Below, in pieces: positions 17,259 to 59,578 of a DNA stretch of 64,000 bases. Below the pieces are notes generated by a model. The model was not told the DNA's origin and searched no databases. It saw only the letters and a program-made list of their open reading frames with translations. Made by a program: the position numbers and the translations under genes. Position 1 is the first letter of the stretch. Every line of letters starts with the position of its first letter. Source of the stretch: Nemertoderma westbladi (lineage: Eukaryota > Animalia > Xenacoelomorpha); assembly GCA_032718475.1 (NCBI GenBank), contig JAUCBJ010004507.1:1-64000 (forward strand), written 5' to 3'.

Positions 17259-17459
17259 TTAGCGCAGTGGCAGCAGTTGATTGGTATTGACAGATGGGGG
17301 CCCATGAGGACGTAAATTGCTGACATACAAGAAGGTATCATGTCGTATTTCCAGGTGTATCTTTTACCTGAGCCGCTAGCTGAATGGTTAGAGCGTCAGA
17401 CTTCCACACTGGATGTCACCATAGTTCAATCCCATCTGGACGTTTAAGCTGTCCCCAAC
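17259..17459 (+). repeat. Dispersed repeat containing an internal tRNA-like segment (copy 1)
   Basis: TAGCTGAATGG (A box) ... AGTTCAATCCC (B box) at ~17370-17445. The whole ~200 bp aligns with the reverse complement of 45254-45473. Confidence 0.75.
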
Positions 17460-19480: not shown

Positions 19481-19719
19481 TGCGTAATTATTGTGTTTTG
19501 AATGTTAATTAAAAAAATATTATTTTGGTTCAACAATAATATTGTGCAGCCTATATAAACTTGAACTAATTCTACATAATTAATTAATCTTTAACAAGCA
19601 TGTTTTGAGGTTCACAGTTCAGATAAATTTATCTAGTTAACAGACATACAATTCAATTATTTGTGGTTCAGTTTTACCTGAGTTATTCTACCTTTGTTTG
19701 CGTGTGTCAATGTCCTATT

Positions 19720-26600: not shown

Positions 26601-29600
26601 GGCAGTTCGGGTTCGCTACCACACCAATCAATCTGTACGTGTACAATAGGTGGCAGTTCGGGTTTGCTACCACACCAATCAATATGTACGTGTACAATAG
26701 GTGGCAGTTTGGGTTCGCTACCACACCAATCAATATGTACGTGTACAATAGGTGGCAGTTCGGGTTCGCTACCACACCAATCAATATGTACGTGTACAGT
26801 ACAATAGGTAGCAGGACGGGTTCGCTACCACACCAATCAATATGTATGTGTACAATAGGTGGCAGTTCGGGTTCGCTACCACACCAATCAATATGTACGT
26901 GTACAATAGGTAGCAGGGTGGGTTCGCTACCACACCAATCAATATGTACGTGTACAATAGGTAGCAGGGTGGGTTCGCTACCACACCAATCAATATGTAC
27001 GTGTACAATAGGTGGCAGTTCGGGTTCGCTACCACACCAATCAATCTGTACGTGTACAATAGGTGGCAGTTCGGGTTCGCTACCACACCAATCGATATGT
27101 ACATGTACAATAGGTGGCAGTTCGGGTTCGCTACCACACCAATCGATATGTACATGTACAATAGGTGGCAGTTCGGGTTCGCTACCACACCAATCAATAT
27201 GTACATGTACAATAGGTGGCAGTTCGGGTTCGCTACCACACCAATCGATATGTACATGTACAATAGGTAGCAGTTCGGGGTCGCTACCACACCAATCAAT
27301 ATGTACGTGTACAATAGGTGGCAGTTCGGGTTCGCTACCACACCAATCAATATGTACGTGTACAATAGGTGGCAGTTCGGGTTCGCTACCACACCAATCG
27401 ATATGTACATGTACAATAGGTGGCAGTTCGGGTTCGCTACCACACCAATCAATATGTACGTGTACAATAGGTGGCAGTTCGGGTTCGCTACCACACCAAT
27501 CAATATGTACATGTACAATAGGTAGCAGTTCGGGTTCGCTACCACACCAATCAATATGTACGTGTACAATAGGTAGCAGTTCGGGGTCGCTACCACACCA
27601 ATCAATATGTACGTGTACAATAGGTGGCAGTTCGGGTTCGCTACCACACCAATCAATATGTACGTGTACAATAGGTGGCAGTTCGGGTTCGCTACCACAC
27701 CAATCGATATGTACATGTACAATAGGTGGCAGTTCGGGTTCGCTACCACACCAATCAATATGTACGTGTACAATAGGTGGCAGTTCGGGTTCGCTACCAC
27801 ACCAATCAATATGTACGTGTACAATAGGTGGCAGTTCGGGTTCGCTACCACACCAATCAATATGTACGTGTACAGTACAATAGGTGGCAGTTCGGGTTCG
27901 CTACCACACCAATCGATATGTACATGTACAATAGGTGGCAGTTCGGGTTCGCTACCACACCAATCAATATGTACGTGTACAATAGGTAGCAGTTTGGGTT
28001 CGCTACCACACCAATCAATATGTACGTGTACAATAGGTGGCAGTTCGGGTTCGCTACCACACCAATCAATATGTACGTGTACAATAGGTGGCAGTTCGGG
28101 GTCGCTACCACACCAATCAATATGTACGTGTACAATAGGTGGCAGTTCGGGTTCGCTACCACACCAATCAATATGTACGTGTACAATAGGTGGCAGTTCG
28201 GGGTCGCTACCACACCAATCAATATGTACGTGTACAATAGGTGGCAGTTCGGGTTCGCTACCACATCAATCAATCTGTACGTGTACAATAGGTGGCAGTT
28301 CGGGGTCGCTACCACACCAATCAATATGTACGTGTACAATAGGTGGCAGTTCGGGGTCGCTACCACACCAATCAATATGTACGTGTACAATAGGTGGCAG
28401 TTCGGGTTCGCTACCACACCAATCGATATGTACATGTACAATAGGTAGCAGTTCGGGGTCGCTACCACACCAATCAATATGTACGTGTACAATAGGTGGC
28501 AGTTCGGGTTCGCTACCACATCAATCAATCTGTACGTGTACAATAGGTGGCAGTTCGGGGTCGCTACCACACCAATCAATATGTACGTGTACAATAGGTG
28601 GCAGTTCGGGGTCGCTACCACACCAATCAATATGTACGTGTACAATAGGTGGCAGTTCGGGTTCGCTACCACACCAATCAATATGTACGTGTACAGTACA
28701 ATAGGTAGCAGGGTGGGTTCGCTACCACACCAATCAATATGTACGTGTACAATAGGTGGCAGTTCGGGTTCGCTACCACACCAATCAATATGTACGTGTA
28801 CAATAGGTAGCAGTTCGGGTTCGCTACCACACCAATCAATATGTACGTGTACAATAGGTGGCAGTTTGGGTTCGCTACCACACCAATCAATATGTACGTG
28901 TACAGTACAATAGGTGGCAGTTCGGGTTCGCTACCACACCAATCAATATGTACGTGTACAATAGGTGGCAGGGTGGGTTCGCTACCACACCAATCAATAT
29001 GTACATGTACAATAGGTAGCAGTTCGGGTTCGCTACCACACCAATCAATATGTACGTGTACAATAGGTGGCAGTTTGGGTTCGCTACCACACCAATCAAT
29101 ATGTACGTGTACAGTACAATAGGTGGCAGTTCGGGTTCGCTACCACACCAATCAATATGTACGTGTACAGTACAATAGGTGGCAGTTCGGGTTCACTACC
29201 ACACCAATCAATATGTACGTGTACAATAGGTAGCAGTTTGGGTTCGCTACCACACCAATCAATATGTACGTGTACAGTACAATAGGTAGCAGTTTGGGTT
29301 CACTACCACACCAATCAATATGTACGTGTACAATAGGTAGCAGTTTGGGTTCGCTACCACACCAATCAATATGTACGTGTACAATAGGTGGCAGTTCGGG
29401 TTCGCTACCACACCAATCAATATGTACGTGTACAATAGGTGGCAGTTTGGGTTCGCTACCACACCAATCAATATGTACGTGTACAGTACAATAGGTGGCA
29501 GTTCGGGTTCGCTACCACACCAATCAATATGTACGTGTACAGTACAATAGGTGGCAGTTCGGGTTCGCTACCACACCAATCAATCTGTACGTGTACAATA

Positions 29601-30605
29601 GGTAGCAGTTCGGGGTCGCTACCACACCAATCAATATGTACGTGTACAATAGGTGGCAGTTTGGGTTCGCTACCACACCAATCAATATGTACGTGTACAG
29701 TACAATAGGTGGCAGTTCGGGTTCGCTACCACACCAATCAATATGTACGTGTACAATAGGTGGCAGTTTGGGTTCGCTACCACACCAATCAATATGTACG
29801 TGTACAATAGGTGGCAGTTTGGGTTCGCTACCACACCAATCAATATGTACGTGTACAGTACAATAGGTGGCAGTTCGGGTTCGCTACCACACCAATCAAT
29901 ATGTACGTGTACAGTACAATAGGTGGCAGTTCGGGTTCACTACCACACCAATCAATATGTACGTGTACAATAGGTAGCAGTTTGGGTTCGCTACCACACC
30001 AATTAATATGTACGTTTACAATAGGTAGCAGGGTGGGTTCGCTACCACACCAATCAATATGTACGTGTACAATAGGTAGCAGTTCGGGGTCGCTACCACA
30101 CCAATCAATATGTACGTGTACAATAGGTGGCAGTTCGGGTTCGCTACCACACCAATCAATATGTACGTGTACAATAGGTGGCAGTTCGGGTTCGCTACCA
30201 CACCAATCAATATGTACATGTACAATAGGTGGCAGTTCGGGTTCGCTACCACACCAATCAATATGTACATGTACAATAGGTGGCAGTTCGGGTTCGCTAC
30301 CACACCAATCAATATGTACGTGTACAATAGGTAGCAGTTCGGGGTCGCTACCACACCAATCAATATGTACGTGTACAATAGGTGGCAGTTCGGGTTCGCT
30401 ACCACACCAATCAATATGTACGTGTACAATAGGTGGCAGTTCGGGTTCGCTACCACACCAATCAATATGTACATGTACAATAGGTGGCAGTTCGGGTTCG
30501 CTACCACACCAATCAATATGTACATGTACAATAGGTGGCAGTTCGGGTTCGCTACCACACCAATCGATATGTACATGTACAATACAATAGGTAGCAGGAC
30601 GGGTT
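20650..30605. repeat. 51-bp satellite, ~195 copies
   Basis: Unit TTCGCTACCACACCAATCAATATGTACGTGTACAATAGGTGGCAGTTCGGG, with 56-bp (extra GTACA) and 52-bp variants. Confidence 0.97.
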
Positions 30606-32011: not shown

Positions 32012-33679
32012 TTAGTGATAAGTTATAGATACTGTCCTCTTCTTCCCCAATATTCTAGAACTAATATCAGATAAAGTGCTTCGTATCACTTTATTCCTCA
32101 AGGCGTAAAGGATCGGATTGAACGTAGCGTTGGCGTAGACAAACCAGAGCGATATATCGAATCCGACGCATGAGGTAGAGATTCCTTTCCATGTTAGACC
32201 CCACATGATTGTGTATGGAATTTGGCAGATGATGTAAAGAGTAACCAGAATCACTATAGTCTGCGCAACCTTGAAGTCTCTGTAAATTCTTTGCTGCTGT
32301 TTACGTTGTTCTCTGACCACACCCGGCGGTTGTCTGGTAAGTTCTGCTATTTCAAATGTGTCTGATCGATTTCTGTTGCCTTCATCAACCTCTGATAGAC
32401 TCGCTGTTCTGTAATTAGCTGGCTTGCGTTCATTCGATTTCGGCCTTTTACTAACATACCGTTTCCTATCAGACCACCCATAAACCTCTTCCACTTGTTT
32501 GACATGGTCAATATCTACAACACTATCTCTTACGGTCATCCATTCCAATACATCTTCTTTACCAGATGGCAATGCCTGGACTAGAAGAGTAATTTTTAGA
32601 AGCCTAGGGAGACCATTAGTGATATCTTCATTTTCATTTTCATATATCACTCTGTTGGTAAGAAAGTTATACTGACTATCTTGTGTAGCAGGTGGTTCAA
32701 TCTCTCTCCCTTCATATACAGGGTTTATAACACTAAATGCTTCGTTGTTATCAGTGTTATCAACTTCAAGTATGCCCAACATGGAATCGCTGTGGGATCT
32801 ATTTTCACGGTCTATTCCTCTACTTGTTCCACTGATGCCTTTACCCAGCTTTTGCAACCGACTTCTGTATGTAAAGCTACTTAGTTTTTGTTTCCTCTCC
32901 GCTATTGGTCTGCTTGCGGTTGTTTCTGAGGTAGTGATGTTCTGTAGAGGAAAATTGGGCGTTTGTAGTGAATTTCGCGTGAGTTTTAGTGCGTTCTGGT
33001 GTATGGCGTTGTACACACCTTTATTTAAAATTATAAGCACCAATAGTGGGAAGAATGCAAGTGTTAATGTTACCACACCATTAAAAGTTCCATTATCGAT
33101 CCACTTTTCTGGGCACGCAATGTTACCAGAGCGGAATGGTGTAGTGTCTAAAAGTGAAGAGATCTCCTTCCACCATATTATGGTACTCCCAAATGTAACT
33201 AGAGGTATCAACCAACAGACTACCAGTAAAGTGGTTATGACGTAACGATTACGTTTATAGGTATGCAATCTTGTGATACACATGTAGCGGTCTAAGGTAA
33301 TCACGCATATGGTAAGACCGCCAGCGGCGACGCTCGTATAGTCTGCTATATGCCACACGGTACACCATCCTTGATGAGCCGGAAACGTGTCCTCGTGCAA
33401 TATAAGTTTGGATATATAACCGTATGGAGCCACGACAATGGAAATTATGAAATCAGCGCAGGCCAATGATAGTATTGGTAGATTTCCCAAGGTTCGCACT
33501 CGTTTCTCGTAGAAGAAAGCCGCTAATATTGATCCATTTGCGAGGATTGCTGTCACTGTTAGTGGTATAGCTATGATAAGAATAATTACTTTAGCATAAT
33601 CTGGGTAGGGACATTCCCCCTGTATTATTGGCACAGTTTGGTTTGTCTCGTTTTCTTTATTGAATTCAAATATCTCCAT
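32012..33679 (-). CDS. Rhodopsin-class GPCR, aminergic (muscarinic/histamine H3-like), intronless, paralog 2
   Basis: N-glycosylation sites in the N-terminus, LACAD, CTVWHIADY...DRY, long ICL3, CQIPY, WFVYANATFNPILY. Confidence 0.94.
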   Translation of the reverse strand: MEIFEFNKENETNQTVPIIQGECPYPDYAKVIILIIAIPLTVTAILANGSILAAFFYEKRVRTLGNLPILSLACADFIISIVVAPYGYISKLILHEDTFPAHQGWCTVWHIADYTSVAAGGLTICVITLDRYMCITRLHTYKRNRYVITTLLVVCWLIPLVTFGSTIIWWKEISSLLDTTPFRSGNIACPEKWIDNGTFNGVVTLTLAFFPLLVLIILNKGVYNAIHQNALKLTRNSLQTPNFPLQNITTSETTASRPIAERKQKLSSFTYRSRLQKLGKGISGTSRGIDRENRSHSDSMLGILEVDNTDNNEAFSVINPVYEGREIEPPATQDSQYNFLTNRVIYENENEDITNGLPRLLKITLLVQALPSGKEDVLEWMTVRDSVVDIDHVKQVEEVYGWSDRKRYVSKRPKSNERKPANYRTASLSEVDEGNRNRSDTFEIAELTRQPPGVVREQRKQQQRIYRDFKVAQTIVILVTLYIICQIPYTIMWGLTWKGISTSCVGFDISLWFVYANATFNPILYALRNKVIRSTLSDISSRILGKKRTVSITYH

Positions 33680-33813
33680 CTCAACTCTCGCTTAAACATT
33701 GAAATTGTTCATAACCAATTATTTATTATACAAGTTGTGATTAAAAACAAATATGCTACAAGTAGAGGTTAGTACAAGTACAAGTACAAGTGAGTGTTTG
33801 ATGATAATTTATA

Positions 33814-36800
33814 ACCTGTATCACTGATTTTATATACCTACCTGTATCACTGATTTTATATACCTACCTGTATCACTGATTTTATATACCTACCTGTATC
33901 ACTGATTTTATATACCTACCTGTATCACTGATTTTATATACCTACCTGTATCACTGATTTTATATATCTGCCTGTATCACTGATTTTATATACCTACCTG
34001 TATCACTGATTTTATATACCTACCTGTATCACTGATTTTATATACCTACCTGTATCACTGATTTTATATACCTACCTGTATCACTGATTTTATATACCTA
34101 CCTGTATCACTGATTTTATATACCTACCTGTATCACTGATTTTATATACCTACCTGTATCACTGATTTTATATACCTACCTGTATCACTGATTTTATATA
34201 TCTGCCTGTATCACTGATTTTATATACCTACCTGTATCACTGATTTTATATACCTACCTGTATCACTGATTTTATATACCTACCTGTATCACTGATTTTA
34301 TATACCTACCTGTATCACTGATTTTATATACCTACCTGTATCACTGATTTTATATACCAACCTGTATCACTGATTTTATATACCTACCTGTATCACTGAT
34401 TTTATATACCTACCTGTATCACTGATTTTATATACCAACCTGTATCACTGATTTTATATACCAACCTGTATCACTGATTTTATATACCAACCTGTATCAC
34501 TGATTTTATATACCTACCTGTATCACTGATTTTATATACCTACCTGTATCACTGATTTTATGTACCTACCTGTATCACTGATTTTATATACCTACCTGTA
34601 TCACTGATTTTATATACCTACCTGTATCACTGATTTTATATACCTACCTGTATCACTGATTTTATATACCTACCTGTATCACTGATTTTATATATCTGCC
34701 TGTATCACTGATTTTATATACCTACCTGTATCACTGATTTTATATACCTACCTGTATCACTGATTTTATATACCTACCTGTATCACTGATTTTATATACC
34801 TACCTGTATCACTGATTTTATATACCTACCTGTATCACTGATTTTATATATCTGCCTGTATCACTGATTTTATATACCTACCTGTATCACTGATTTTATA
34901 TACCTACCTGTATCACTGATTTTATATACCTACCTGTATCACTGATTTTATATACCTACCTGTATCACTGATTTTATATACCTACCTGTATCACTGATTT
35001 TATATACCAACCTGTATCACTGATTTTATATACCTACCTGTATCACTGATTTTATATACCTACCTGTATCACTGATTTTATATACCAACCTGTATCACTG
35101 ATTTTATATACCAACCTGTATCACTGATTTTATATACCAACCTGTATCACTGATTTTATATACCAACCTGTATCACTGATTTTATATACCAACCTGTATC
35201 ACTGATTTTATATACCTACCTGTATCACTGATTTTATATACCTACCTGTATCACTGATTTTATATATCTACCTGTATCACTGATTTTATGTACCTACCTG
35301 TATCACTGATTTTATATACCTACCTGTATCACTGATTTTATATACCTACCTGTATCACTGATTTTATATACCTACCTGTATCACTGATTTTATATATCTG
35401 CCTGTATCACTGATTTTATATACCTACCTGTATCACTGATTTTATATACCTACCTGTATCACTGATTTTATATACCTACCTGTATCACTGATTTTATATA
35501 CCTACCTGTATCACTGATTTTATATACCTACCTGTATCACTGATTTTATATACCTACCTGTATCACTGATTTTATATACCTACCTGTATCACTGATTTTA
35601 TATATCTGCCTGTATCACTGATTTTATATACCTACCTGTATCACTGATTTTATATACCTACCTGTATCACTGATTTTATATACCTACCTGTATCACTGAT
35701 TTTATATACCTACCTGTATCACTGATTTTATATACCTACCTGTATCACTGATTTTATATACCTACCTGTATCACTGATTTTATATACCTACCTGTATCAC
35801 TGATTTTATATACCTACCTGTATCACTGATTTTATATACCTACCTGTATCACTGATTTTATATACCTACCTGTATCACTGATTTTATATACCTACCTGTA
35901 TCACTGATTTTATATACCTACCTGTATCACTGATTTTATATACCTACCTGTATCACTGATTTTATATATCTGCCTGTATCACTGATTTTATATACCTACC
36001 TGTATCACTGATTTTATATACCTACCTGTATCACTGATTTTATATACCTACCTGTATCACTGATTTTATATACCTACCTGTATCACTGATTTTATATACC
36101 TACCTGTATCACTGATTTTATATACCTACCTGTATCACTGATTTTATATACCTACCTGTATCACTGATTTTATATACCAACCTGTATCACTGATTTTATA
36201 TACCAACCTGTATCACTGATTTTATATACCTACCTGTATCACTGATTTTATATACCAACCTGTATCACTGATTTTATATACCAACCTGTATCACTGATTT
36301 TATATACCTACCTGTATCACTGATTTTATATACCAACCTGTATCACTGATTTTATATACCAACCTGTATCACTGATTTTATATACTTACCTGTATCACTG
36401 ATTTTATATACCTACCTGTATCACTGATTTTATATACCTACCTGTATCACTGATTTTATATACCTACCTGTATCACTGATTTTATATACCAACCTGTATC
36501 ACTGATTTTATATACCAACCTGTATCACTGATTTTATATACCTACCTGTATCACTGATTTTATATACCTACCTGTATCACTGATTTTATATACCTACCTG
36601 TATCACTGATTTTATATACCAACCTGTATCACTGATTTTATATACCAACCTGTATCACTGATTTTATATACCAACCTGTATCACTGATTTTATATACCTA
36701 CCTGTATCACTGATTTTATGTACCTACCTGTATCACTGATTTTATATACCTACCTGTATCACTGATTTTATATACCTACCTGTATCACTGATTTTATATA

Positions 36801-37466
36801 CCTACCTGTATCACTGATTTTATATATCTGCCTGTATCACTGATTTTATATACCTACCTGTATCACTGATTTTATATACCTACCTGTATCACTGATTTTA
36901 TATATCTGCCTGTATCACTGATTTTATATACCTACCTGTATCACTGATTTTATATACCTACCTGTATCACTGATTTTATATATCTGCCTGTATCACTGAT
37001 TTTATATATCTGCCTGTATCACTGATTTTATATACCTACCTGTATCACTGATTTTATATATCTGCCTGTATCACTGATTTTATATACCTACCTGTATCAC
37101 TGATTTTATATACCTACCTGTATCACTGATTTTATATACCTACCTGTATCACTGATTTTATATACCTACCTGTATCACTGATTTTATATACCTACCTGTA
37201 TCACTGATTTTATATATCTGCCTGTATCACTGATTTTATATACCTACCTGTATCACTGATTTTATATACCTACCTGTATCACTGATTTTATATACCTACC
37301 TGTATCACTGATTTTATATATCTGCCTGTATCACTGATTTTATATACCTACCTGTATCACTGATTTTATATATCTGCCTGTATCACTGATTTTATATACC
37401 TACCTGTATCACTGATTTTATATACCTACCTGTATCACTGATTTTATATACCTACCTGTATCACTG
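33814..37466. repeat. 26-bp minisatellite, ~140 copies
   Basis: Unit ACCTGTATCACTGATTTTATATACCT, with variants ...ATATCTG and ...ACCAAC. Confidence 0.97.
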
Positions 37467-38524
37467 TGTAATTGCTGTATTAATAAATAGTTCACACATG
37501 AAGATCCAACTTCCAACTTGAACGTAAAACAACTCAGAACTCCCGAGTTATCACGAATGATATTGTACTTGCTTGGTTTGTAATAACTAACTAATACAAC
37601 ATGGGTAATTTTCAATGCTCTTCAAAGCTTCCCACCCCCTATCTTTGATATCGCGATTCAAATTTCTTGAGGATAATGGAATACCTGATGAGATAATTGC
37701 GCGTCGCTTAGTTATAGCTCCACAACATTATTTTCTACCAGTAGAACCTGTGCTGCTTGCTATAGGGCAGTTGCTGTAATTTAATAAAGTGGTAGATTGA
37801 TTATAAGACTTAAATTAAATAGTTATTGCTCAAAACTCAACACTATTTACTCACTTGTCTAACGTCCTGCATGTTATGTATAACCTCGCCTAATTAATAT
37901 TTTTTGTTCAACTTAATGTTTAGGCTGGTAAATACAGTATATAAGTATGCTATTAGTAATAATCGCGTACAGCCAGCAGTGCGTTAGTGCAAACTGTTGG
38001 CCATTATGATTGTCATTATATTGTTCTATTATTCTAACAATTTGGACTGTGAACTTTAGATGTTCCGGTATAACGTTTTTAAGCAGGTAGCTCTTGCTAT
38101 TGATTGAGGGACTTGGGTGTATTTCCTGTCACGACTTAGGGATATGGGTTCCCCTGTATATTACTTAACTATAATATATAATCTTTGTTAATTGGTTATG
38201 AATTTTAAGTGCAGATCCTATTAGTTTGTGCTAAGAAAACAAAGTATTTCAGATATCCTGTATTCAAATTCAAAAGTGGTAATGGAAATGATTCAATGTG
38301 GGATGATACCAAAAATGATACCATCAAAAAAATGATGAACATACCAAAGTGTCAGTTTATTAAGTGGTGTTGTTTATTTATTTAACCATTTATGTGTGTG
38401 AGACACTACTAATTACTCAAGTACATATTTGATTCCATATGGCTATTAATTAATGAATTGGAGTTGAACTGATAATGCAAAACTGTAATATATGATGTTT
38501 TAATATGATTTAGTTCAGAAATTG

Positions 38525-38627
38525 AAAAAATGAGGAAGCGCGTCACTGGGGATTGAACCAGCGCTATACGTACGTTTCGGCCACTCAGGCCTCATCAGAA
38601 GCGCTAACCAGTTCAGCCACGTGTCCC
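38525..38627 (-). ncRNA. Putative Pol III tRNA-like RNA containing a minimal type I hammerhead ribozyme
   Basis: Minus strand: GGGACACG TGGCTGAACTGG (A box) TTAGCGCTT CTGATGA GGCC TGAGT GGCC GAAA C GTAC G TA TAGCGCT GGTTCAATCCC (B box) CAGTGACGCGCTTCCTCA TTTTTT (terminator). The hammerhead core CUGAUGA/GAAA/GUA is complete. Confidence 0.8.
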
Positions 38628-38764
38628 TGACAATGGCTTGTTTATTTAGTCCACTTCTAAAACACTTAAACTTAAAACTACTTAAAAACACTTAAAAATA
38701 TAATTTTTACAATTACATTATAAGCTGAACTCAAATTCAACTAAGTGCAGCTTCATGAAAAATA

Positions 38765-41700
38765 AGTTCGGTTACTGCGTTGTAATTAGTTCGGTTACTG
38801 TGTTGTAATTAGTTCGGTTACTGCGTTGTAATTAGTTCGGTTATTGTGTTGTAATTAGTTCGCTTACTGCGTTGTAATTAGTTCGCTTACTGCGTTGTAA
38901 TTAGTTCGGTTACTGCGTTGTAATTAGTTCGGTTACTGCGTTGTAATTAGTTCGGTTACTGTGTTGTAATTAGTTCTGTTACTGCGTTGTAATTAGTTCG
39001 GTTACTGCGTTGTAATTAGTTCGGTTACTGCGTTGTAATTAGTTCGGTTACTGCGTTGTAATTAGTTCTGTTACTGCGTTGTAATTAGTTCGGTTACTGC
39101 GTTGTAATTAGTTCGGTTACTGCGTTGTAATTAGTTCGGTTACTGCGTTGTAATTAGTTCGGTTACTGCGTTGTAATTAGTTCGGTTATTGTGTTGTAAT
39201 TAGTTCGGTTACTGCGTTGTAATTAGTTCGGTTACTGCGTTGTAATTAGTTCGGTTATTGTGTTGTAATTAGTTCGCTTACTGCGTTGTAATTAGTTCGG
39301 TTACTGCGTTGTAATTAGTTCGGTTACTGCGTTGTAATTAGTTCGGTTACTGTGTTGTAATTAGTTCGGTTACTGCGTTGTAATTAGTTCGGTTACTGCG
39401 TTGTAATTAGTTCGGTTACTGCGTTGTAATTAGTTCGGTTACTGCGTTGTAATTAGTTCTGTTACTGCGTTGTAATTAGTTCGGTTACTGCGTTGTAATT
39501 AGTTCGGTTACTGCGTTGTAATTAGTTCGGTTACTGCGTTGTAATTAGTTCGGTTACTGCGTTGTAATTAGTTCGGTTACTGCGTTGTAATTAGATCGGT
39601 TACTGTGTTGTAATTAGTTCGGTTACTGCGTTGTAATTAGTTCGCTTACTGCGTTGTAATTAGTTCGGTTACTGCGTTGTAATTAGTTCGGTTACTGCGT
39701 TGTAATTAGTTCTGTTACTGCGTTGTAATTAGTTCGGTTACTGTGTTGTAATTAGTTCGGTTACTGTGTTGCAATTAGTTCGGTTACTGCGTTGTAATTA
39801 GTTCGGTTACTGTGTTGTAATTAGTTCGGTTACTGTGTTGTAATTAGTTCGGTTACTGCGTTGTAATTAGTTCTGTTACTGCGTTGTAATTAGTTCGGTT
39901 ACTGCGTTGTAATTAGATCGGTTACTGTGTTGTAATTAGTTCGGTTACTGCGTTGTAATTAGTTCGGTTACTGCGTTGTAATTAGTTCGGTTACTGTGTT
40001 GTAATTAGTTCGGTTACTGCGTTGTAATTAGTTCGGTTACTGCGTTGTAATTAGTTCGGTTACTGCGTTGTAATTAGTTCGGTTACTGCGTTGTAATTAG
40101 TTCGGTTACTGCGTTGTAATTAGTTCGGTTACTGTGTTGTAATTAGTTCGGTTACTGTGTTGTAATTAGTTCGGTTACTGCGTTGTAATTAGTTCTGTTA
40201 CTGCGTTGTAATTAGTTCGGTTACTGCGTTGTAATTAGTTCGGTTACTGCGTTGTAATTAGTTCGGTTACTGCGTTGTAATTAGTTCGCTTACTGCGTTG
40301 TAATTAGTTCGGTTACTGCGTTGTAATTAGTTCGGTTGCTGCGTTGTAATTAGTTCGGTTACTGCGTTGTAATTAGTTCGGTTACTGCGTTGTAATTAGT
40401 TCGGTTACTGCGTTGTAATTTGTTCGGTTGCTGCGTTGTAATTAGTTCGGTTGCTGCGTTGTAATTAGTTCGCTTACTGCGTTGTAATTAGTTCGGTTAC
40501 TGCGTTGTAATTAGTTCGGTTACTGCGTTGTAATTAGTTCGGTTACTGCGTTGTAATTAGTTCGGTTACTGCGTTGTAATTAGTTCGGTTACTGCGTTGT
40601 AATTAGTTCGGTTACTGCGTTGTAATTAGTTCGGTTACTGCGTTGTAATTAGTTCGCTTACTGCGTTGTAATTAGTTCGGTTACTGCGTTGTAATTAGTT
40701 CGGTTACTGCGTTGTAATTAGTTCGGTTACTGCGTTGTAATTAGTTCGGTTACTGCGTTGTAATTAGTTCTGTTACTGCGTTGTAATTAGTTCGGTTACT
40801 GTGTTGTAATTAGTTCGGTTACTGTGTTGCAATTAGTTCGGTTACTGCGTTGTAATTAGTTCGGTTACTGCGTTGTAATTAGTTCGGTTACTGTGTTGTA
40901 ATTAGTTCGGTTACTGTGTTGTAATTAGTTCGGTTACTGCGTTGTAATTAGTTCTGTTACTGCGTTGTAATTAGTTCGGTTATTGCGTTGTAATTAGATC
41001 GGTTACTGTGTTGTAATTAGTTCGGTTACTGCGTTGTAATTAGTTCGGTTACTGCGTTGTAATTAGTTCGGTTACTGTGTTGTAATTAGTTCGGTTACTG
41101 TGTTGTAATTAGTTCGGTTACTGCGTTGTAATTAGTTCTGTTACTGCGTTGTAATTAGTTCGGTTACTGCGTTGTAATTAGATCGGTTACTGTGTTGTAA
41201 TTAGTTCGGTTACTGCGTTGTAATTAGTTCGGTTACTGCGTTGTAATTAGTTCGGTTACTGCGTTGTAATTAGTTCGGTTACTGCGTTGTAATTAGTTCG
41301 GTTACTGCGTTGTAATTAGTTCGGTTACTGCGTTGTAATTAGATCGGTTACTGCGTTGTAATTAGTTCGGTTACTGCGTTGTAAATAGTTAGGTTACTAT
41401 GTTGTAATTAGTTCGGTTACTGTGTTGTAATTAGTTCGGTTACTGCGTTGTAATTAGTTCGGTTACTGCGTTGTAATTAGTTCGGTTACTGCATTGTAAT
41501 TAGTTCGGTTACTGCATTGTAATTAGTTCGGTTACTGCGTTGTAAATAGTTCGGTTACTATGTTGTAATTAGTTCGGTTACTGTGTTGTAATTAGTTCGG
41601 TTACTGCGTTGTAATTAGTTCGGTTACTGCGTTGTAATTAGTTCGGTTACTGCATTGTAATTAGTTCGGTTACTGCATTGTAATTAGTTCGGTTACTGCG

Positions 41701-44700
41701 TTGTAATTAGTTCGGTTACTGCGTTGTAATTAGTTCGCTTACTGCGTTGTAATTAGTTCGGTTACTGCATTGTAATTAGTTCGGTTACTGCGTTGTAATT
41801 AGTTCGGTTACTGCGTTGTAATTAGATCGGTTACTGTGTTGTAATTAGTTCGGTTACTGCGTTGTAATTAGTTCGGTTACTGCGTTGTAATTAGTTCGGT
41901 TACTGTGTTGTAATTAGTTCGGTTACTGTGTTGTAATTAGTTCGGTTACTGTGTTGTAATTAGTTCGGTTACTGCGTTGTAATTAGTTCGGTTACTGCGT
42001 TGTAATTAGTTCGGTTACTGCGTTGTAATTAGTTCTGTTACTGCGTTGTAATTAGTTCGGTTACTGCGTTGTAATTAGTTCGGTTACTGCGTTGTAATTA
42101 GTTCGGTTACTGCGTTGTAATTAGTTCGGTTACTGCGTTGTAATTAGTTCGGTTACTGCGTTGTAATTAGTTCGGTTACTGCGTTGTAATTAGTTCGGTT
42201 ACTGCGTTGTAATTAGTTCGGTTACTGCGTTGTAATTAGTTCGGTTACTGTGTTGTAATTAGTTCGGTTACTGCGTTGTAATTAGTTCGGTTACTGCGTT
42301 GTAATTAGTTCTGTTACTGCGTTGTAATTAGTTCGGTTACTGCGTTGTAATTAGTTCGGTTACTGCGTTGTAATTAGTTCGGTTACTGCGTTGTAATTAG
42401 TTCGGTTACTGCGTTGTAATTAGTTCGACTACTGCGTTGTAATTAGTTCGGTTACTGCGTTGTAATTAATTCGGTTACTGCGTTGTAATTAGTTCGGTTA
42501 CTTTATTGTAATTAGTTCGGTTACTGTGTTGTAATTAGTTCGGTTACTACGTTGTAATTAGTTCGGTTACTGCGTTGTAATTAGTTCGGTTACTGCGTTG
42601 TAATTAGTTCTGTTACTGCGTTGTAAAACGTTCGGTTACTGCGTTGTAATTAGTTCAACTACTGCGTTGTAATTAGTTCGGTTACTGCGTTGTAATTAGT
42701 TCTGTTACTGCGTTGTAATTAGTTCGGTTACTGCGTTGTAATTAGTTCGGTTACTGCGTTGTAATTAGTTCGGTTACTGCGTTGTAATTAGTTCGGTTAC
42801 TGCATTGTAATTAGTTCGGTTACTGCATTGTAATTAGTTCGGTTACTGCGTTGTAATTAGTTCGGTTACTGCGTTGTAATTAGTTCGCTTACTGCGTTGT
42901 AATTAGTTCGGTTACTGCGTTGTAATTAGTTCGGTTACTGCGTTGTAATTAGTTCGGTTACTGCGTTGTAATTAGTTCGGTTACTGCGTTGTAATTAGTT
43001 CGGTTACTGCGTTGTAATTAGTTCGGTTACTGCGTTGTAATTAGATCGGTTACTGTGTTGTAATTAGTTCGGTTACTGCGTTGTAATTAGTTCGGTTACT
43101 GCGTTGTAATTAGTTCGGTTACTGCGTTGTAATTAGTTCGGTTACTGCATTGTAATTAGTTCGGTTACTGCATTGTAATTAGTTCGGTTACTGCGTTGTA
43201 ATTAGTTCGGTTACTGCGTTGTAATTAGTTCGGTTACTGCATTGTAATTAGTTCGGTTACTGCATTGTAATTAGTTCGGTTACTGCGTTGTAATTAGTTC
43301 GGTTACTGCGTTGTAATTAGTTCGGTTACTGCGTTGTAATTAGTTCGGTTACTGCGTTGTAATTAGTTCGGTTACTGCGTTGTAATTAGTTCGGTTACTG
43401 CGTTGTAATTAGTTCGGTTGCTGCGTTGTAATTAGTTCGGTTACTGCGTTGTAATTAGTTCGGTTACTGCGTTGTAATTAGTTCGGTTACTGCGTTGTAA
43501 TTAGTTCGGTTACTGCGTTGTAATTAGTTCGGTTACTGTGTTGTATTAGTTCGGTTACTGCGTTGTAATTAGTTCGGTTACTGCGTTGTAATTAGTTCTG
43601 TTACTGCGTTGTAATTAGTTCGGTTACTGCGTTGTAATTAGTTCGGTTACTGCGTTGTAATTAGTTCGGTTACTGCGTTGTAATTAGTTCGGTTACTGCG
43701 TTGTAATTAGTTCGACTACTGCGTTGTAATTAGTTCGGTTACTGCGTTGTAATTAATTCGGTTACTGCGTTGTAATTAGTTCGGTTACTTTATTGTAATT
43801 AGTTCGGTTACTGTGTTGTAATTAGTTCGGTTACTACGTTGTAATTAGTTCGGTTACTGCGTTGTAATTAGTTCGGTTACTGCGTTGTAATTAGTTCTGT
43901 TACTGCGTTGTAAAACGTTCGGTTACTGCGTTGTAATTAGTTCAACTACTGCGTTGTAATTAGTTCTGTTACTGCGTTGTAATTAGTTCTGTTACTGCGT
44001 TGTAATTAGTTCGGTTACTGCGTTGTAAATAGTTCGGTTACTGCGTTGTAAATAGTTCGGTTACTGCGTTGTAATTAGTTCGGTTACTGCGTCGTAATTA
44101 GTTCGGTTACTGCGTTGTAATTAGTTCTGTTACTGCGTTGTAATTAGTTCTGTTACTGCGTTGTAATTAGTTCGGTTACTGCGTCGTAATTAGTTCGGTT
44201 ACTGCGTTGTAATTAGTTCGGTTACTGTGTTGTATTAGTTCGGTTACTGCGTTGTAATTAGTTCGGTTACTGCGTTGTAATTAGTTCTGTTACTGCGTTG
44301 TAATTAGTTCGGTTACTGCGTTGTAATTAGTTCGGTTACTGCGTTGTAATTAGTTCGGTTACTGCGTTGTAATTAGTTCGGTTACTGCGTTGTAATTAGT
44401 TCGACTACTGCGTTGTAATTAGTTCGGTTACTGCGTTGTAATTAATTCGGTTACTGCGTTGTAATTAGTTCGGTTACTTTATTGTAATTAGTTCGGTTAC
44501 TGTGTTGTAATTAGTTCGGTTACTACGTTGTAATTAGTTCGGTTACTGCGTTGTAATTAGTTCGGTTACTGCGTTGTAATTAGTTCTGTTACTGCGTTGT
44601 AAAACGTTCGGTTACTGCGTTGTAATTAGTTCAACTACTGCGTTGTAATTAGTTCTGTTACTGCGTTGTAATTAGTTCTGTTACTGCGTTGTAATTAGTT

Positions 44701-44852
44701 CGGTTACTGCGTTGTAAATAGTTCGGTTACTGCGTTGTAAATAGTTCGGTTACTGCGTTGTAATTAGTTCGGTTACTGCGTCGTAATTAGTTCGGTTACT
44801 GCGTTGTAATTAGTTCTGTTACTGCGTTGTAAATAGTTCGGTTACTGCGTTG
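38765..44852. repeat. 23-bp satellite, ~265 copies
   Basis: Unit TAGTTCGGTTACTGCGTTGTAAT. Confidence 0.97.
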
Positions 44853-45253: not shown

Positions 45254-45473
45254 GTTGGGCACAGCTTTGCAAAGTCGACAATGACGTCCAGGTGGGATCG
45301 AACTGGTGACCTCCGGGTTGGAAGTCTGACGTTCTAACCATTCAGCTAGTGGCTCAGGTAAAAGATAGACATGGAAATTCTACATGATACCTTGTACAGT
45401 ATATCCGCAATTTACATCATCATGGCCTCCCTCCCATCTGTCTATACCATCACTTGCTGCCACTGGGCTCAAC
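45254..45473 (-). repeat. Dispersed repeat containing an internal tRNA-like segment (copy 2)
   Basis: Minus strand GAGCCACTAGCTGAATGGTTAGAACGTCAGACTTCCAACCCGGAGGTCACCAGTTCGATCCC. The upstream ~110 bp is also shared with 17259-17370. Confidence 0.75.
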
Positions 45474-47386: not shown

Positions 47387-50300
47387 GAAAAGAGAGAAGG
47401 TTTTCACTTAGCGGCAACCAGTGCAGTATAAGTGTGAAGGAAAGCGAGAAGGTTTTTCACTTAGCGGTAACCAGTGCAGTATAAGTGTGAAGGAAAGAGA
47501 GAAGGTTTTCACGTAGCGGCAACCAGTGCAGTATATGTGTGAAGGAAAGAGAGAAGGTTTTCACTTAGCGGCAACCAGTGCAGTATAAGTGTGAAGGAAA
47601 GCGAGAAGGTTTTTCACTTAGCGGTAACCAGTGCAGTATAAGTGTGAAGGAAAGAGAGAAGGTTTTCACGTAGCGGCAACCAGTGCAGTATATGTGTGAA
47701 GGAAAGAGAGAAGGTTTTCACTTAGCGGCAACAAGTGCAGTATAAGTGTGAAGGAAAGAGAGAAGGTTTTCACTTAGCGGTAACCAGTGCAGTATAAGTG
47801 TGAAGGAAAGAGAGAAGGTTTTAACTTAGCGGCAACCTGTGCAGTATAAGTGTGAAGGAAAGAGAGAAGGTTTTTCACTTAGCGGTAACCTGTGCAGTAT
47901 AAGTGTGAAGGAAAGAGAGAAGGTTTTTCACTTAGCGGTAACCTGTGCAGTATAAGTGTGAAGGAAAGAGAGAAGGTTTTTCACTTAGCGGTAACCTGTG
48001 CAGTATAAGTGTGAAGGAAAGAGAGAAGGTTTTAACTTAGCGGCAACCAGTGCAGTATAAGTGTTAAGGAAAGAGAGAAGGTTTTAACTTAGCGGCAACC
48101 TGTGCAGTATAAGTGTGAAGGAAAGAGAGAAGGTTTTAACTTAGCGGCAACCAGTGCAGTATAAGTGTGAAGGAAAGAGAGAAGGTTTTAACTTAGCGGC
48201 AACCAGTGCAGTATAAGTGTGAAGGAAAGAGAGAAGGTTTTAACTTAGCGGCAACCTGTGCAGTATAAGTGTGAAGGAAAGAGAGAAGGTTTTTCACTTA
48301 GCGGTAACCTGTGCAGTATAAGTGTGAAGGAAAGAGAGAAGGTTTTCACGTAGCGGCAACCAGTGCAGTAAAAGTGTGAAGGAAAGAGAGAAGGTTTTAA
48401 CTTAGCGGCAACCTGTGCAGTATAAGTGTGAAGGAAAGAGAGAAGGTTTTTCACTTAGCGGTAACCTGTGCAGTATAAGTGTGAAGGAAAGAGAGAAGGT
48501 TTTTCACTTAGCGGTAACCAGTGCAGTATAAGTGTGAAGGAAAGAGAGAAGGTTTTCACGTAGCGGCAACCAGTGCAGTATATGTGTGAAGGAAAGAGAG
48601 AAGGTTTTCACTTAGCGGCAACAAGTGCAGTATAAGTGTGAAGGAAAGAGAGAAGGTTTTCACTTAGCGGTAACCAGTGCAGTATAAGTGTGAAGGAAAG
48701 AGAGAAGGTTTTAACTTAGCGGCAACCTGTGCAGTATAAGTGTGAAGGAAAGAGAGAAGGTTTTAACTTAGCGGCAACCAGTGCAGTATAAGTGTGAAGG
48801 AAAGAGAGAAGGTTTTAACTTAGCGGCAACCAGTGCAGTATAAGTGTGAAGGAAAGAGGGAAGGTTTTTCACTTAGCGGTAACCAGTGCAGTATAAGTGT
48901 TAAGGAAAGAGAGAAGGTTTTAACTTAGCGGCAACCTGTGCAGTATAAGTGTGAAGGAAAGAGAGAAGGTTTTAACTTAGCGGCAACCAGTGCAGTATAA
49001 GTGTGAAGGAAAGAGAGAAGGTTTTAACTTAGCGGCAACCAGTGCAGTATAAGTGTGAAGGAAAGAGAGAAGGTTTTAACTTAGCGGCAACCTGTGCAGT
49101 ATAAGTGTGAAGGAAAGAGAGAAGGTTTTTCACTTAGCGGTAACCTGTGCAGTATAAGTGTGAAGGAAAGAGAGAAGGTTTTCACGTAGCGGCAACCAGT
49201 GCAGTAAAAGTGTGAAGGAAAGAGAGAAGGTTTTAACTTAGCGGCAACCTGTGCAGTATAAGTGTGAAGGAAAGAGAGAAGGTTTTTCACTTAGCGGTAA
49301 CCTGTGCGTGCAGTATAAGTGTGAAGGAAAGAGAGAAGGTTTTAACTTAGCGGCAACCAGTGCAGTATAAGTGTGAAGGAAAGAGAGAAGGTTTTAACTT
49401 AGCGGCAACCAGAGCAGTATAAGTGTGAAGGAAAGAGAGACGGTTTTCACGTAGCGGCAACCAGTGCAGTATAAGTGTGAAGGAAAGAGAGAAGGTTTTA
49501 ACTTAGCGGCAACCAGTGCAGTATAAGTGTGAAGGAAAGAGAGAAGGTTTTCACGTAGCGGCAACCAGTGCAGTATAAGTGTGAAGGAAAGAGAGAAGGT
49601 TTTAACTTAGCGGCAACCAGTGCAGTATAAGTGTGAAGGAAAGAGAGAAGGTTTTAACTTAGCGGCAACCAGTGCAGTATAAGTGTGAAGGAAAGAGAGA
49701 AGGTTTTTCACTTAGCGGTAACCAGTGCAGTATAAGTGTGAAGGAAAGAGAGAAGGTTTTAACTTAGCGGCAACCAGTGCAGTATAAGTGTGAAGGAAAG
49801 AGAGAAGGTTTTCACTTAGCGGTAACCAGTGCAGTATAAGTGTGAAGGAAAGAGAGAAGGTTTTAACTTAGCGGCAACCAGTGCAGTATAAGTGTGAAGG
49901 AAAGAGAGAAGGTTTTAACTTAGCGGCAACCAGTGCAGTATAAGTGTGAAGGAAAGAGATAAGGATTCACTTAGCGGCAACCAGTGCAGTATAAGTGTGA
50001 AGGAAAGAGAGAAGGTTTTCAATTAACGGCAACCAGTGCAGTATAAGTGTGAAGGAAAGAGAGAAGGTTTTCACTTAGCGGCAACCAGTGCAGTATAAGT
50101 GTGAAGGAAAGAGAGAAGGTTTTCACTTAGCGGCAACCAGTGCATTATAAGTGTGAAGGAAAGAGAGAAGGTTTTAACTTAGCGGCAACCAGTGCAGTAT
50201 AAGTGTGAAGGAAAGAGAGAAGGTTTTCACTTAGCGGCAACCAGTGCAGTATAAGTGTGAAGGAAAGAGAGAAGGTTTTCACTTAGCGGCAACCAGTGCA

Positions 50301-53300
50301 GTATACGTGTGAAGGAAAGAGGGAAGGTTTTAACTTAGCGGCAACCAGTGCAGTATACGTGTGAAGGAAAGAGGGAAGGTTTTAACTTAGCGGCAACCAG
50401 TGCAGTATAAGTGTGAAGAAAAGAGAGAAGGTTTTAACTTAGCGGCAACCAGTGCAGTATAAGTGTGAAGGAAAGAGATAAGGATTCACTTAGCGGCAAC
50501 CAGTGCAGTATAAGTGTGAAGGAAAGAGAGAAGGTTTTAACTTAGCGGCAACCAGTGCAGTATAAGTGTGAAGGAAAGAGATAAGGATTCACTTAGCGGC
50601 AACCAGTGCAGTATACGTGTGAAGGAAAGAGGGAAGATTTTAACTTAGCGACAACCAGTGCAGTATACGTGTGAAGGAAAGAGGGGAGGTTTTAACTTAG
50701 CGGCAACCAGTGCAGTATAAGTGTGAAGGAAAGAGAGAAGGTTTTAACTTAGCGGCAACCAGTGCAGTATAAGTGTGAAGGAAATAGATAAGGATTCACT
50801 TAGCGGCAACCAGTGCAGTATAAGTGTGAAGGAAAGAGAGAAGGTTTTAACTTAGCGGCAACCAGTGCAGTATAAGTGTGAAGGAAAGAGATAAGGATTC
50901 ACTTAGCGGCAACCAGTGCAGTATAAGTGTGAAGGAAAGAGAGAAGGTTTTAAATTAACGGCAACCAGTGCAGTATAAGTGTGAAGGAAAGAGAGAAGGT
51001 TTTCACTTAGCGGCAACCAGTGCAGTATAAGTGTGAAGGAAAGAGAGAAGGTTTTCACTTAGCGGCAACCAGTGCAGTATAAGTGTGAAGGAAAGAGAGA
51101 AGGTTTTAACTTAGCGGCAACCAGTGCAGTATAAGTGTGAAGGAAAGAGAGAAGGTTTTAACTTAGCGGCAACCAGTGCAGTATACGTGTGAAGGAAAGA
51201 GGGAAGGTTTTCACTTAGCGGCAACCAGTGCCGTATAAGTGTGAAGGAAAGAGAGAAGGTTTTAACTTAGCGGCAACCAGTGCAGTATACGTGTGAAGGA
51301 AAGAGGGAAGGTTTTAACTTAGCGGCAACCAGTGCAGTATAAGTGTGAAGGAAAGAGAGAAGGTTTTAAATTAACGGCAACCAGTGCAGTATAAGTGTGA
51401 AGGAAAGAGAGAAGGTTTTCACTTAGCGGCAACCAGTGCAGTATAAGTGTGAAGGAAAGAGAGAAGGTTTTCACTTAGCGGCAACCAGTGCAGTATACGT
51501 GTGAAGGAAAGAGGGAAGGTTTTAACTTAGCGGCAACCAGTGCAGTATACGTGTGAAGGAAAGAGGGAAGGTTTTAACTTAGCGGCAACCAGTGCAGTAT
51601 AAGTGTGAAGGAAAGAGAGAAGGTTTTAACTTAGCGGCAACCAGTGCAGTATAAGTGTGAAGGAAAGAGATAAGGATTCACTTAGCGGCAACCAGTGCAG
51701 TATAAGTGTGAAGGAAAGAGAGAAGGTTTTAACTTAGCGGCAACCAGTGCAGTATAAGTGTGAAGGAAAGAGATAAGGATTCACTTAGTGGCAACCAGTG
51801 CAGTATACGTGTGAAGGAAAGAGGGAAGGTTTTAACTTAGCGGCAACCAGTGCAGTATACGTGTGAAGGAAAGAGGGGAGGTTTTAACTTAGCGGCAACC
51901 AGTGCAGTATAAGTGTGAAGGAAAGAGAGAAGGTTTTAACTTAGCGGCAACCAGTGCAGTATAAGTGTGAAGGAAAGAGATAAGGATTCACTTAGCGGCA
52001 ACCAGTGCAGTATAAGTGTGAAGGAAAGAGAGAAGGTTTTAACTTAGCGGCAACCAGTGCAGTATAAGTGTGAAGGAAAGAGATAAGGATTCACTTAGCG
52101 GCAACCAGTGCAGTATAAGTGTGAAGGAAAGAGAGAAGGTTTTAAATTAACGGCAACCAGTGCAGTATAAGTGTGAAGGAAAGAGAGAAGGTTTTCACTT
52201 AGCGGCAACCAGTGCAGTATAAGTGTGAAGGAAAGAGAGAAGGTTTTCACTTAGCGGCAACCAGTGCAGTATAAGTGTGAAGGAAAGAGAGAAGGTTTTA
52301 ACTTAGCGGCAACCAGTACAGTATAAGTGTGAAGGAAAGAGAGAAGGTTTTAACTTAGCGGCAACCAGTGCAGTATACGTGTGAAGGAAAGAGGGAAGGT
52401 TTTCACTTAGCGGCAACCAGTGCCGTATAAGTGTGAAGGAAAGAGAGAAGGTTTTAACTTAGCGGCAACCAGTGCAGTATACGTGTGAAGGAAAGAGGGA
52501 AGGTTTTAACTTAGCGGCAACCAGTGCAGTATAAGTGTGAAGGAAAGAGAGAAGGTTTTAAATTAACGGCAACCAGTGCAGTATAAGTGTGAAGGAAAGA
52601 GAGAAGGTTTTCACTTAGCGGCAACCAGTGCAGTATAAGTGTGAAGGAAAGAGAGAAGGTTTTCACTTAGCGGCAACCAGTGCAGTATACGTGTGAAGGA
52701 AAGAGGGAAGGTTTTAACTTAGCGGCAACCAGTGCAGTATACGTGTGAAGGAAAGAGGGAAGGTTTTAACTTAGCGGCAACCAGTGCAGTATAAGTGTGA
52801 AGGAAAGAGAGAAGGTTTTAACTTAGCGGCAACCAGTGCAGTATAAGTGTGAAGGAAAGAGATAAGGATTCACTTAGCGGCAACCAGTGCAGTATAAGTG
52901 TGAAGGAAAGAGAGAAGGTTTTAACTTAGCGGCAACCAGTGCAGTATAAGTGTGAAGGAAAGAGATAAGGATTCACTTAGTGGCAACCAGTGCAGTATAC
53001 GTGTGAAGGAAAGAGGGAAGGTTTTAACTTAGCGGCAACCAGTGCAGTATACGTGTGAAGGAAAGAGGGGAGGTTTTAACTTAGCGGCAACCAGTGCAGT
53101 ATAAGTGTGAAGGAAAGAGAGAAGGTTTTAACTTAGCGGCAACCAGTGCAGTATAAGTGTGAAGGAAAGAGATAAGGATTCACTTAGCGGCAACCAGTGC
53201 AGTATAAGTGTGAAGGAAAGAGAGAAGGTTTTAACTTAGCGGCAACCAGTGCAGTATAAGTGTGAAGGAAAGAGATAAGGATTCACTTAGCGGCAACCAG

Positions 53301-55340: not shown

Positions 55341-55545
55341 AGATAGAGTAACGTCCACAAAGAAGCAGCCATTTTTCTAGTACATATATGCCAAATTTCA
55401 GATGAAATGGAATAAAATCAAGGAAATCGTGGAAGGTTTTCACTTTCAGACATTTCTGTAAGTAGGTTAGGTTCTTGCCCAGGACACCGGTGGTATCATT
55501 AGATAAAGAGTTTGTTTTGTTGGCTGGACCTATGTAAGTGACCAA

Positions 55546-59291: not shown

Positions 59292-59578
59292 AATACTGCA
59301 TGCACCTTTTACATTAGTATAAACAGTTCAGTTCATGACATTAATAATTCTAGAAAGTACCAATATTATGTACTCAATAATTTAATATGTACCGTTAATA
59401 TTATTTATCACTATTAATATCAACTACTTATTAAGTCCTCCAAGAGTGTGGGGCGAGCCTTGGAGTCTGTGAGTCCAGAGGCGTAGCGAGGGGGAGGGGA
59501 CGTTCCCCCCGGGCACTCTCACCCAGGGGCGCTAAAATGTCAGGGAATTCTTGTAAAAATAGGACAAATCAGTGAAAA

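Follow-up and report, generated by a model that had tools for sequence, protein, structure and literature searches.

A putative hammerhead ribozyme nested between the A and B boxes of a high-copy repeat in Nemertoderma westbladi

A hammerhead-like motif enclosed by the two boxes of a tRNA-type promoter raises two questions: whether it is likely to be a ribozyme, and what kind of element would carry it. The case considered here is the minus strand of positions 38525-38627 in the window, the 64,000-nucleotide stretch of DNA that was analysed as a whole. An earlier note had described the locus as a hammerhead at the anticodon-arm position of a tRNA-like Pol III unit. When the minus-strand coordinates were read again, the A box, core, stems, GAAA, GUA, B box, T6 run and the U-U at 1.1-2.1 were all found where that note had put them (Table 1).

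Table 1. Features of the hammerhead unit, its repeat and the surrounding window
Feature	Position	Strand	Basis or remark
A box	38608..38619	-	sequence; no variant at these positions among those listed
Hammerhead stem I, 5' strand	38599..38605	-	38599 is position 2.1, U in the window copy
Catalytic core C3-A9, CUGAUGA	38592..38598	-	sequence
Stem II (4 bp) and 5-nt loop II	38579..38591	-	pair probability 0.98-0.99; loop varies within the family
GAAA, helix III (2 bp, palindromic GUAC tetraloop) and GUA triplet	38567..38578	-	sequence
GAAA	38578-38575	-	
GUA cleavage triplet	38569-38567	-	
Predicted cut	between 38567 and 38566	-	
Hammerhead stem I, 3' strand	38560..38566	-	pair probability 0.87-0.92 in a 107-nt RNA
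6-bp stem I arms proper	38605-38600 / 38565-38560	-	1.1-2.1 is U-U at 38599/38566
B box	38549..38559	-	sequence; family differs at 38552, yet the consensus still fits
T6 run, Pol III terminator-like	38525..38530	-	sequence
Core repeat unit, TGTCA...TTACA, LTR-like ends	38484..38632	-	149 bp in the window; depth, loose ends and sequence; boundaries inferred
Conserved upstream motif with TATA-like hexamer	38651..38660	-	same offset in the window and in X1, X2, X3 and X5 loose-end consensuses
Purine tract abutting the TG start, possible polypurine tract	38633..38647	-	loose ends behind 38632
Shared 3' tail beyond T6, ending ATTACA	38484..38524	-	loose-end rows before 38504-38526
Extension found in some copies, forming an arm of a degenerate inverted repeat	38450..38483	-	records reaching 38446-38456, all four runs
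Upstream inverted copy of the extension	38700..38745	.	27 nt, 81% complementary core 38713-38739
Other tRNA-derived repeats without hammerhead	17360-17445, 45285-45365, 12545-12610	+, -, +	
Broken reverse transcriptase	55507-56650	+	Pfam RVT_1 E=0.0016 only
Three paralogous intronless rhodopsin-type receptor ORFs	17822-19504, 32012-33691, 57525-59327	-	Pfam 7tm_1
Six unrelated satellite types	871-2534 and 10461-11471; 20650-30584; 33814-37466; 38761-44852; 47389-55340; 60526-62616		53, 51, 26, 23, 52 and 46 bp, respectively

The hammerhead motif and its predicted folding

The conserved type I core is present (C3-A9, G12-A15.1 and U16.1-H17), and stems I, II and III pair next to it, with A-U at 2.1-1.1 in the family majority and U-U in the window copy. 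By sequence and modelled structure the motif is classed as a type I hammerhead, a putative ribozyme. The loose pattern CUGANGA...GAAA is not significant, with three matches in the window against 1.84 expected and 35 of 100 shuffles reaching three; the full type I descriptor matches once in the window, at this unit, and nowhere in 20 Mb of sequence simulated by an order-2 Markov model trained on the non-satellite parts of the window. The Rfam hammerhead models, by which the earlier note had proposed to check the assignment, gave no match to the window copy at the gathering score or at E<=10, and no second copy of the unit was found within the 64 kb. The earlier note had also called stem III minimal and set the motif beside minimal type I hammerheads, those of Penelope LTRs among them. 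The Penelope form does not apply: the Penelope minimal hammerhead has a helix II of 7-8 bp and an extra base after A9 (PMC4209133), neither of which is present here, and a 2-bp helix III with a tetraloop and a 4-bp helix II is the ordinary invertebrate type I form (PMC7229834, PMC4209133). Type I ribozymes with a 2-bp helix III and a tetraloop can cleave as monomers (PMC7229834).

In a 107-nt RNA from G38631 to the U-run, stems I and II are predicted with the probabilities given in Table 1, that of helix III in the monomer being 0.04-0.05 and those of the D-stem and T-stem 0.0. The 8-nt segment 38575-38568 of helix III is self-complementary (duplex -9.8 kcal/mol), so that a double hammerhead is possible. 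By position in the tRNA layout, stem I corresponds to the 3' strand of the D-stem and the 5' strand of the T-stem rather than to the anticodon stem, which displaces the anticodon-arm placement; because it takes strands that a cloverleaf needs, the hammerhead and tRNA folds would be mutually exclusive. ARAGORN reported no tRNA in the window copy, and a cloverleaf with an anticodon arm is absent; the 222 calls made at a lowered threshold were dismissed as noise. A tRNA-like fold is thus unsupported, and the modelled structures suggest that the A and B boxes most likely act at the DNA level. An origin of the hammerhead core from an anticodon loop, which it resembles, was considered; no paper deriving the one from the other was found in the literature searched.

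Once the upstream flank is included, stem I of the window copy is no longer predicted (probability 0.00-0.01), which argues against cutting in long transcripts of this copy. Its overall folding energy is unremarkable (z -0.80 and -0.63). A pairing of the 3' extension with the head (-15.5 kcal/mol) lay between the first and fifth percentile of controls and was not accepted. With a transcription start at G38631, the predicted cleavage pieces would measure 65 and 40-42 nt, replacing the earlier figures of about 61 nt for the 5' half and about 40 nt for the 3' half. The end chemistry of an RtcB substrate, which had been attributed to these halves, would indeed follow from a hammerhead cut, but from that of any hammerhead, and is not special to this layout.

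A dispersed family, its ends and its surroundings

The stretch is present in three of the six listed DNA runs, with no RNA run listed for it, and 527, 619, 906 and 47 contigs matched in runs X1, X2, X3 and X5, nearly all on 38445-38660; these four DNA runs stand for at most three samples, and X1 may be the source of the window itself. Summed depth over the body is 40,773-99,108, compared with 37.9 for the unique flank in X1, and the depth ratio at the A-box bin, an order of magnitude that measures depth and not copy number, is about 1,100 in X1 and 2,800 in X3. The 38525-38627 unit belongs to a dispersed high-copy repeat family, across which the nesting of the hammerhead between the A and B boxes, first seen in a single copy, is conserved.

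At 38599, the base that makes the 1.1-2.1 pair A-U accounts for 99.6%, 99.7% and 99.8% of depth in X1, X2 and X3. The restored pair that the earlier note had wished to see in other copies is therefore that of the family majority, and its caution over an impairing U-U is true of the window copy, a worn member to which the defect is confined, and not of the family (A-U in more than 99% of depth in X1-X3). In X5 the pairing base makes up 47% of depth and an insertion variant dominates. A high-depth X5 variant carries four extra bases at the start of the core (38598-38599) and a change at 38565, and may form a bulged stem I.

All figures on ribozyme variation concern the variants listed, which are unphased. 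Within X1-X3, three of the four listed polymorphic positions of the 46-nt ribozyme fall in loops or at position 7 (hand estimate, p about 0.03). Loop II is polymorphic at 38585 (17-33% of depth in X1-X3) and loop III at 38571 (2-14%), where self-pairing is still possible through G-U, and a variant of core position 7 makes up 1.6% of X3 depth. At position 11.1 the closing pair of stem II passes from G-C to G-U in 36-51% of X1-X3 depth, and A9 is altered in 0.14% of X3 depth and about 10% of X5 depth (two contigs). The G10.1-C11.1 pair is normally highly conserved in hammerheads (PMC4209133), and its change to G-U, together with those at A9, counts against activity. Stem changes among the listed, unphased variants are one-sided and of the G-U-compatible kind only, with no compensatory double change among these. 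Substitutions in T6 amount to about 1-2% of depth in X1-X3 and 6-7% in X5. No pile-up of contig ends occurs at the predicted cut site among those listed. An opposite-strand joint at 38566/38598 was considered as a trace of cleavage and rejected, as fold-back through the stem I arms yields the same joint.

The earlier note had taken a self-terminating RNA of about 100 nt for the whole unit. Sequence common to the copies reaches from about 28 nt upstream of the predicted start to some 30-40 nt past T6, so the unit exceeds the Pol III transcript. Its boundaries come from the loose ends of short contigs, and besides the TG start at 38632 another at 38664 is possible. The TATA-like hexamer, TAGAAG in the window and TATAAG in the X3/X5 consensus, lies at -28..-23 from G38631; type 2 Pol III promoters are helped by such a box at -31/-24 (PMC7279448). 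Purines occupy 13 of the 15 positions before the TG in one family subtype and 10 of 15 in the window copy. Behind 38632, three X5 contigs agree at 0.89 and 19 X3 contigs at 0.68 (purine-tract chance 0.004), agreement being 0.66-0.69 in X1-X3. The tail past T6 measures 41 nt in the window copy and about 30 nt elsewhere in the family. An X5 contig breaks off right at the inferred 3' end, and a second runs on into unrelated sequence.

Some copies, the window copy included, have a further extension of about 35 nt. The inverted-repeat arms 38454-38480 and 38713-38739 align with a score of 57, reached by three of 2000 shuffles, and in a joint from 38531 to 38703 (X1, X2 and X3) the cassette is missing and both arms remain. 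Among 2099 contigs, three joints are listed in which the unit meets a truncated inverted copy head to head (38575/38632, 38598/38631 and 38566/38620). No tail-to-head joint occurs among the contig joints listed, where short contigs and the divergent window tail could hide one. Target-site duplications and tandem copies had been proposed as things to look for: the window copy, which need not be a solo LTR, stands single in the window, with no such duplication in its flanks (CCAT and GTTT). Neither in the window nor in the few flanks seen is the 3' end followed by a TGG-type primer-binding site. Where such a site would lie, 6 nt past the inferred 3' end, the 10-mer at 38468-38477 (-) is identical to the opening 10 bases in two fungal Helenus internal regions, a match that may be due to chance.

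The unit lies in a 1.3-kb gap between two satellites, in a window that also holds LINE reverse transcriptases and large satellite arrays. No RT/GIY-YIG ORF lies beside it, the nearest candidate being the broken reverse transcriptase about 17 kb off, which has motifs that we take to be Penelope-like; no hammerhead was found near that fragment, and a PDB search with it was uninformative. Among the other tRNA-derived repeats of Table 1, those at 17360-17445 (+) and 45285-45365 (-) are copies of one SINE-like family. The 53-bp satellite occurs twice, in opposite orientation, around two LINE fragments. The receptor ORFs have very long third loops and satellites between them, and a protein search with one of the three found no relative at E<=1e-10. 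A 525-codon open frame at 12216-13793 (-) had no Pfam match.

The kind of element that carries the hammerhead

No hammerhead between A and B boxes was found described in the papers searched; the statement of the earlier note that no described family has this layout is upheld to that extent. Animal repeats are known with a hammerhead, with a tRNA-derived promoter and, in Sm-alpha, with both, but a ribozyme built into the promoter itself is described in none of the papers found.

The LTRs of Helenus elements, which are miniature, non-autonomous LTR retrotransposons, contain tRNA-like A and B boxes (PMC10886601). Read by eye in the supplement of that paper, the LTR consensuses typically open with TG and a short head, continue with the A box, the B box and a T-run, and close with 15-35 nt and ACA; a purine tract precedes them. 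Like Helenus and TRIMp3 (Kojima 2024, PMC10886601), the Nemertoderma repeat has A and B boxes in a short TG...CA unit, a T-run after the B box, an ACA tail, a candidate purine tract upstream and apparently solo copies; unlike Helenus as described there, it contains a putative ribozyme, the accessible text of PMC10886601 describing none and naming the hammerhead once, in the title of a reference. Like plant LTR retrozymes (Cervera et al. 2016, PMC4918200), it holds a hammerhead in a short non-coding repeat. Those elements, for which a cycle of cutting, circularisation and reverse transcription has been proposed (PMC4918200), have type III hammerheads and RNAs of 600-800 nt, with no internal Pol III promoter described in the portion available, whereas the present hammerhead is of type I, in an animal, and within A and B boxes.

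Four readings were compared, their probabilities being a matter of judgement and not of computation. At a little short of an even chance, we regard the repeat as the LTR of a tiny non-coding Helenus/TRIM-like retrotransposon with a hammerhead nested between the boxes, i.e. an animal LTR-retrozyme. This reading rests on the order of the unit (TG, head, A box, B box, T-run, tail, ACA), which matches Helenus LTRs, on the 13 purines of 15 against the TG in one subtype, and on the internal T-run, which a SINE or a Pol III retrozyme could not read through. The modest agreement behind 38632 fits one shared and many unrelated flanks and also counts in its favour, as do the two X5 contigs at the 3' end, the number of contigs matched in the four runs, and the polymorphisms, which lie mostly in loops or at position 7.

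A conventional SINE of tRNA origin, carried along by a LINE and with the hammerhead as an inactive passenger, would suit the two boxes, the dispersed high copy number, the LINE reverse transcriptases in the window and the G-U closing pair of stem II in a large subfamily. We nevertheless hold it to be very improbable: a SINE transcript cannot carry shared sequence upstream of its start or beyond T6, an active cut would destroy the template, and core and stems are kept while loops vary.

A precedent for the combination of Helenus and hammerhead is offered by two wasp LTRs. The string CTGATGA occurs eight times in the supplement text of PMC10886601, where line breaks may hide further matches, and two of these are hammerhead-like, of type III and downstream of the B box. 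They belong to Helenus-2_SyJa-LTR and Helenus-2_SyUm-LTR (Synergus; PMC10886601 DataS1), each with an apparent type III hammerhead, identified by eye only, that has a GUC site, a 7-bp stem I, a 4-bp stem II and loops I and II complementary over about 12 nt. The accessible main text of PMC10886601 makes no mention of them.

Several observations count against the LTR-retrozyme reading. Neither a TGG primer-binding site nor a target-site duplication accompanies the window copy, and the short contigs yielded no paired LTRs or internal region. The purine tract of the window copy is weak and the TATA-like motif better kept, which fits a promoter over a polypurine tract; the ends are inferred, with two TG starts possible. 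The LTR retrozymes known so far carry type III hammerheads, and the G-U at the stem II closing pair and the A9 change in X5 weigh on the same side. Finally, the head-to-head joints and the inverted repeat are features of Penelope type.

These last features lead to a reading that we think possible, though probably not the right one: a non-LTR retrozyme or Sm-alpha-like passenger, in which read-through transcription of a unit of about 170 nt would be followed by cutting, circularisation and reinsertion through a Penelope reverse transcriptase. In metazoans, canonical type I hammerheads belong to retrozymes of the non-LTR kind, 170-400 nt long (PMC7229834), for which a derivation from Penelope has been argued (bioRxiv 10.64898/2026.07.22.740005), and the upstream motif and unit together measure about 170 nt. 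The three joints match the inverted 5'-truncated copy of Penelope insertions and the 30-40-bp extension of some copies their 'tail' (PMC8557442). The window also holds the broken reverse transcriptase with Penelope-like motifs. The likeness to non-LTR retrozymes and Penelope pseudo-LTRs extends to the type I fold, the short palindromic helix III, the length of about 170 nt and the occasional inverted truncated copies (PMC7229834, PMC4209133, PMC8557442, bioRxiv 10.64898/2026.07.22.740005); in the portions of these sources available, however, they are tandem or flank an RT ORF, are reported without LTR marks, and have no A and B boxes described around the ribozyme. Here no tandem or permuted unit is seen in the window, no tail-to-head joint among those listed, and the head-to-head joints are rare; T6 would block Pol III read-through, and fixed TG/CA ends with a purine tract are unexpected, animal hammerhead repeats being reported in the accessible part of PMC4918200 without primer-binding site or polypurine tract and, in schistosomes, with just a full tRNA-Gln. 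The SINE-like Schistosoma repeats Sm-alpha and Sj-alpha likewise combine a type I hammerhead and a tRNA-derived Pol III promoter in a high-copy animal repeat (PMC6765202, PMC2770079, PMC4918200). In Sm-alpha, however, the full tRNA-Gln lies apart from the ribozyme and transcripts are multimers, whereas here the ribozyme replaces the tRNA middle and T6 follows the B box. The earlier note had placed the Sm-alpha ribozyme downstream of the tRNA-like head; the tRNA lies beside the ribozyme and not around it (PMC4918200).

The reading nearest to that of the earlier note, and in our judgement an unlikely one, is a Pol III gene for a self-cutting RNA whose copies multiplied as DNA, for example by riding in a MITE or fold-back element, or as a multigene family of the host; the RNA of about 105 nt and its two halves would then be the product. 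The cassette is complete from promoter to terminator, and its TATA-like motif is suitably spaced. An RNA of Pol III size favours stems I and II (0.87-0.99), stem I being lost in longer contexts, and degenerate inverted repeats flank the window copy, the joint 38531-38703 keeping the arms without the cassette. The inverted arm is nevertheless found in some copies only and has no target-site duplication, an X5 contig leaves the tail into unrelated sequence, and subfamilies, worn copies and high depth are easier to reconcile with a mobile element than with a gene family under maintenance.

Under the LTR-retrozyme reading, an RNA would run from one LTR through a short internal part into the second, with one cut in each LTR; the two palindromic helix III loops would pair as a double hammerhead and aid cutting. 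The resulting unit-length RNA, with 5'-OH and 2',3'-cyclic phosphate, would be closed by RtcB, whose circularising activity was shown in vitro for other retrozymes (PMC7229834), and a partner LTR retrotransposon would provide for reverse transcription of the circle, in line with the proposal for plant LTR retrozymes. Apart from this, an RNA of about 105 nt ending at T6 would come from Pol III; it is predicted to fold as a hammerhead hairpin and not as a tRNA, and could cut itself or serve as dimer partner in trans. A more specific version, which we put forward tentatively and with clear reserve, is a Helenus-type element in which a tRNA gene, its anticodon region converted into a hammerhead, forms the LTR. 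A stretch of about 60 bp would then be both Pol III promoter as DNA and self-cutting RNA, the short Pol III product would license cutting of the long RNA in trans, and the element would be the first animal LTR-retrozyme. Since the features that define Helenus, Sm-alpha and the retrozymes are not all established for it, the element is assigned to none of them.

Patterns of the unit layout found nothing in viral contigs or prokaryote genomes and 12 matches in metagenome contigs, none related in sequence to the Nemertoderma family by inspection. An A-box-like motif followed by the core occurs at 105 viral loci, 56 with a paired stem II and none with a B box. Four of the metagenome loci (L003:36-112, L006, L008 and L012) share a repeated element, near identical over about 125 nt with differing 3' flanks, whose type III hammerhead scores below the gathering score (Rfam RF00008, 27.6 bits, E 0.013); a related core lies in L001:490-559. 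Its loop I is like a tRNA D-loop, its loop II of 7 nt is anticodon-loop-like, and a B box follows. The flank of L006 translates, by eye, to a WD40-like frame with intron-like breaks, so that it is probably eukaryotic. This element is possibly an independent ribozyme-in-tRNA fusion and, with the two wasp Helenus LTRs, suggests that such fusions may have arisen more than once. L002, L005, L007 and L010 (about 475-529) hold type III hammerheads (RF00008, 39 bits), behind which lies a hairpin whose fit to the B-box pattern is probably fortuitous.

If the LTR reading is true, the repeat would link plant LTR retrozymes and Helenus, groups thought separate, and would offer a way in which elements whose LTR contains a terminator could define the ends of their RNA. 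Under any of the readings, it provides an easily tested, high-copy case of about 105 nt in which one sequence is both promoter and putative catalyst, and a possible enzyme-free source of tRNA-half-like RNAs.
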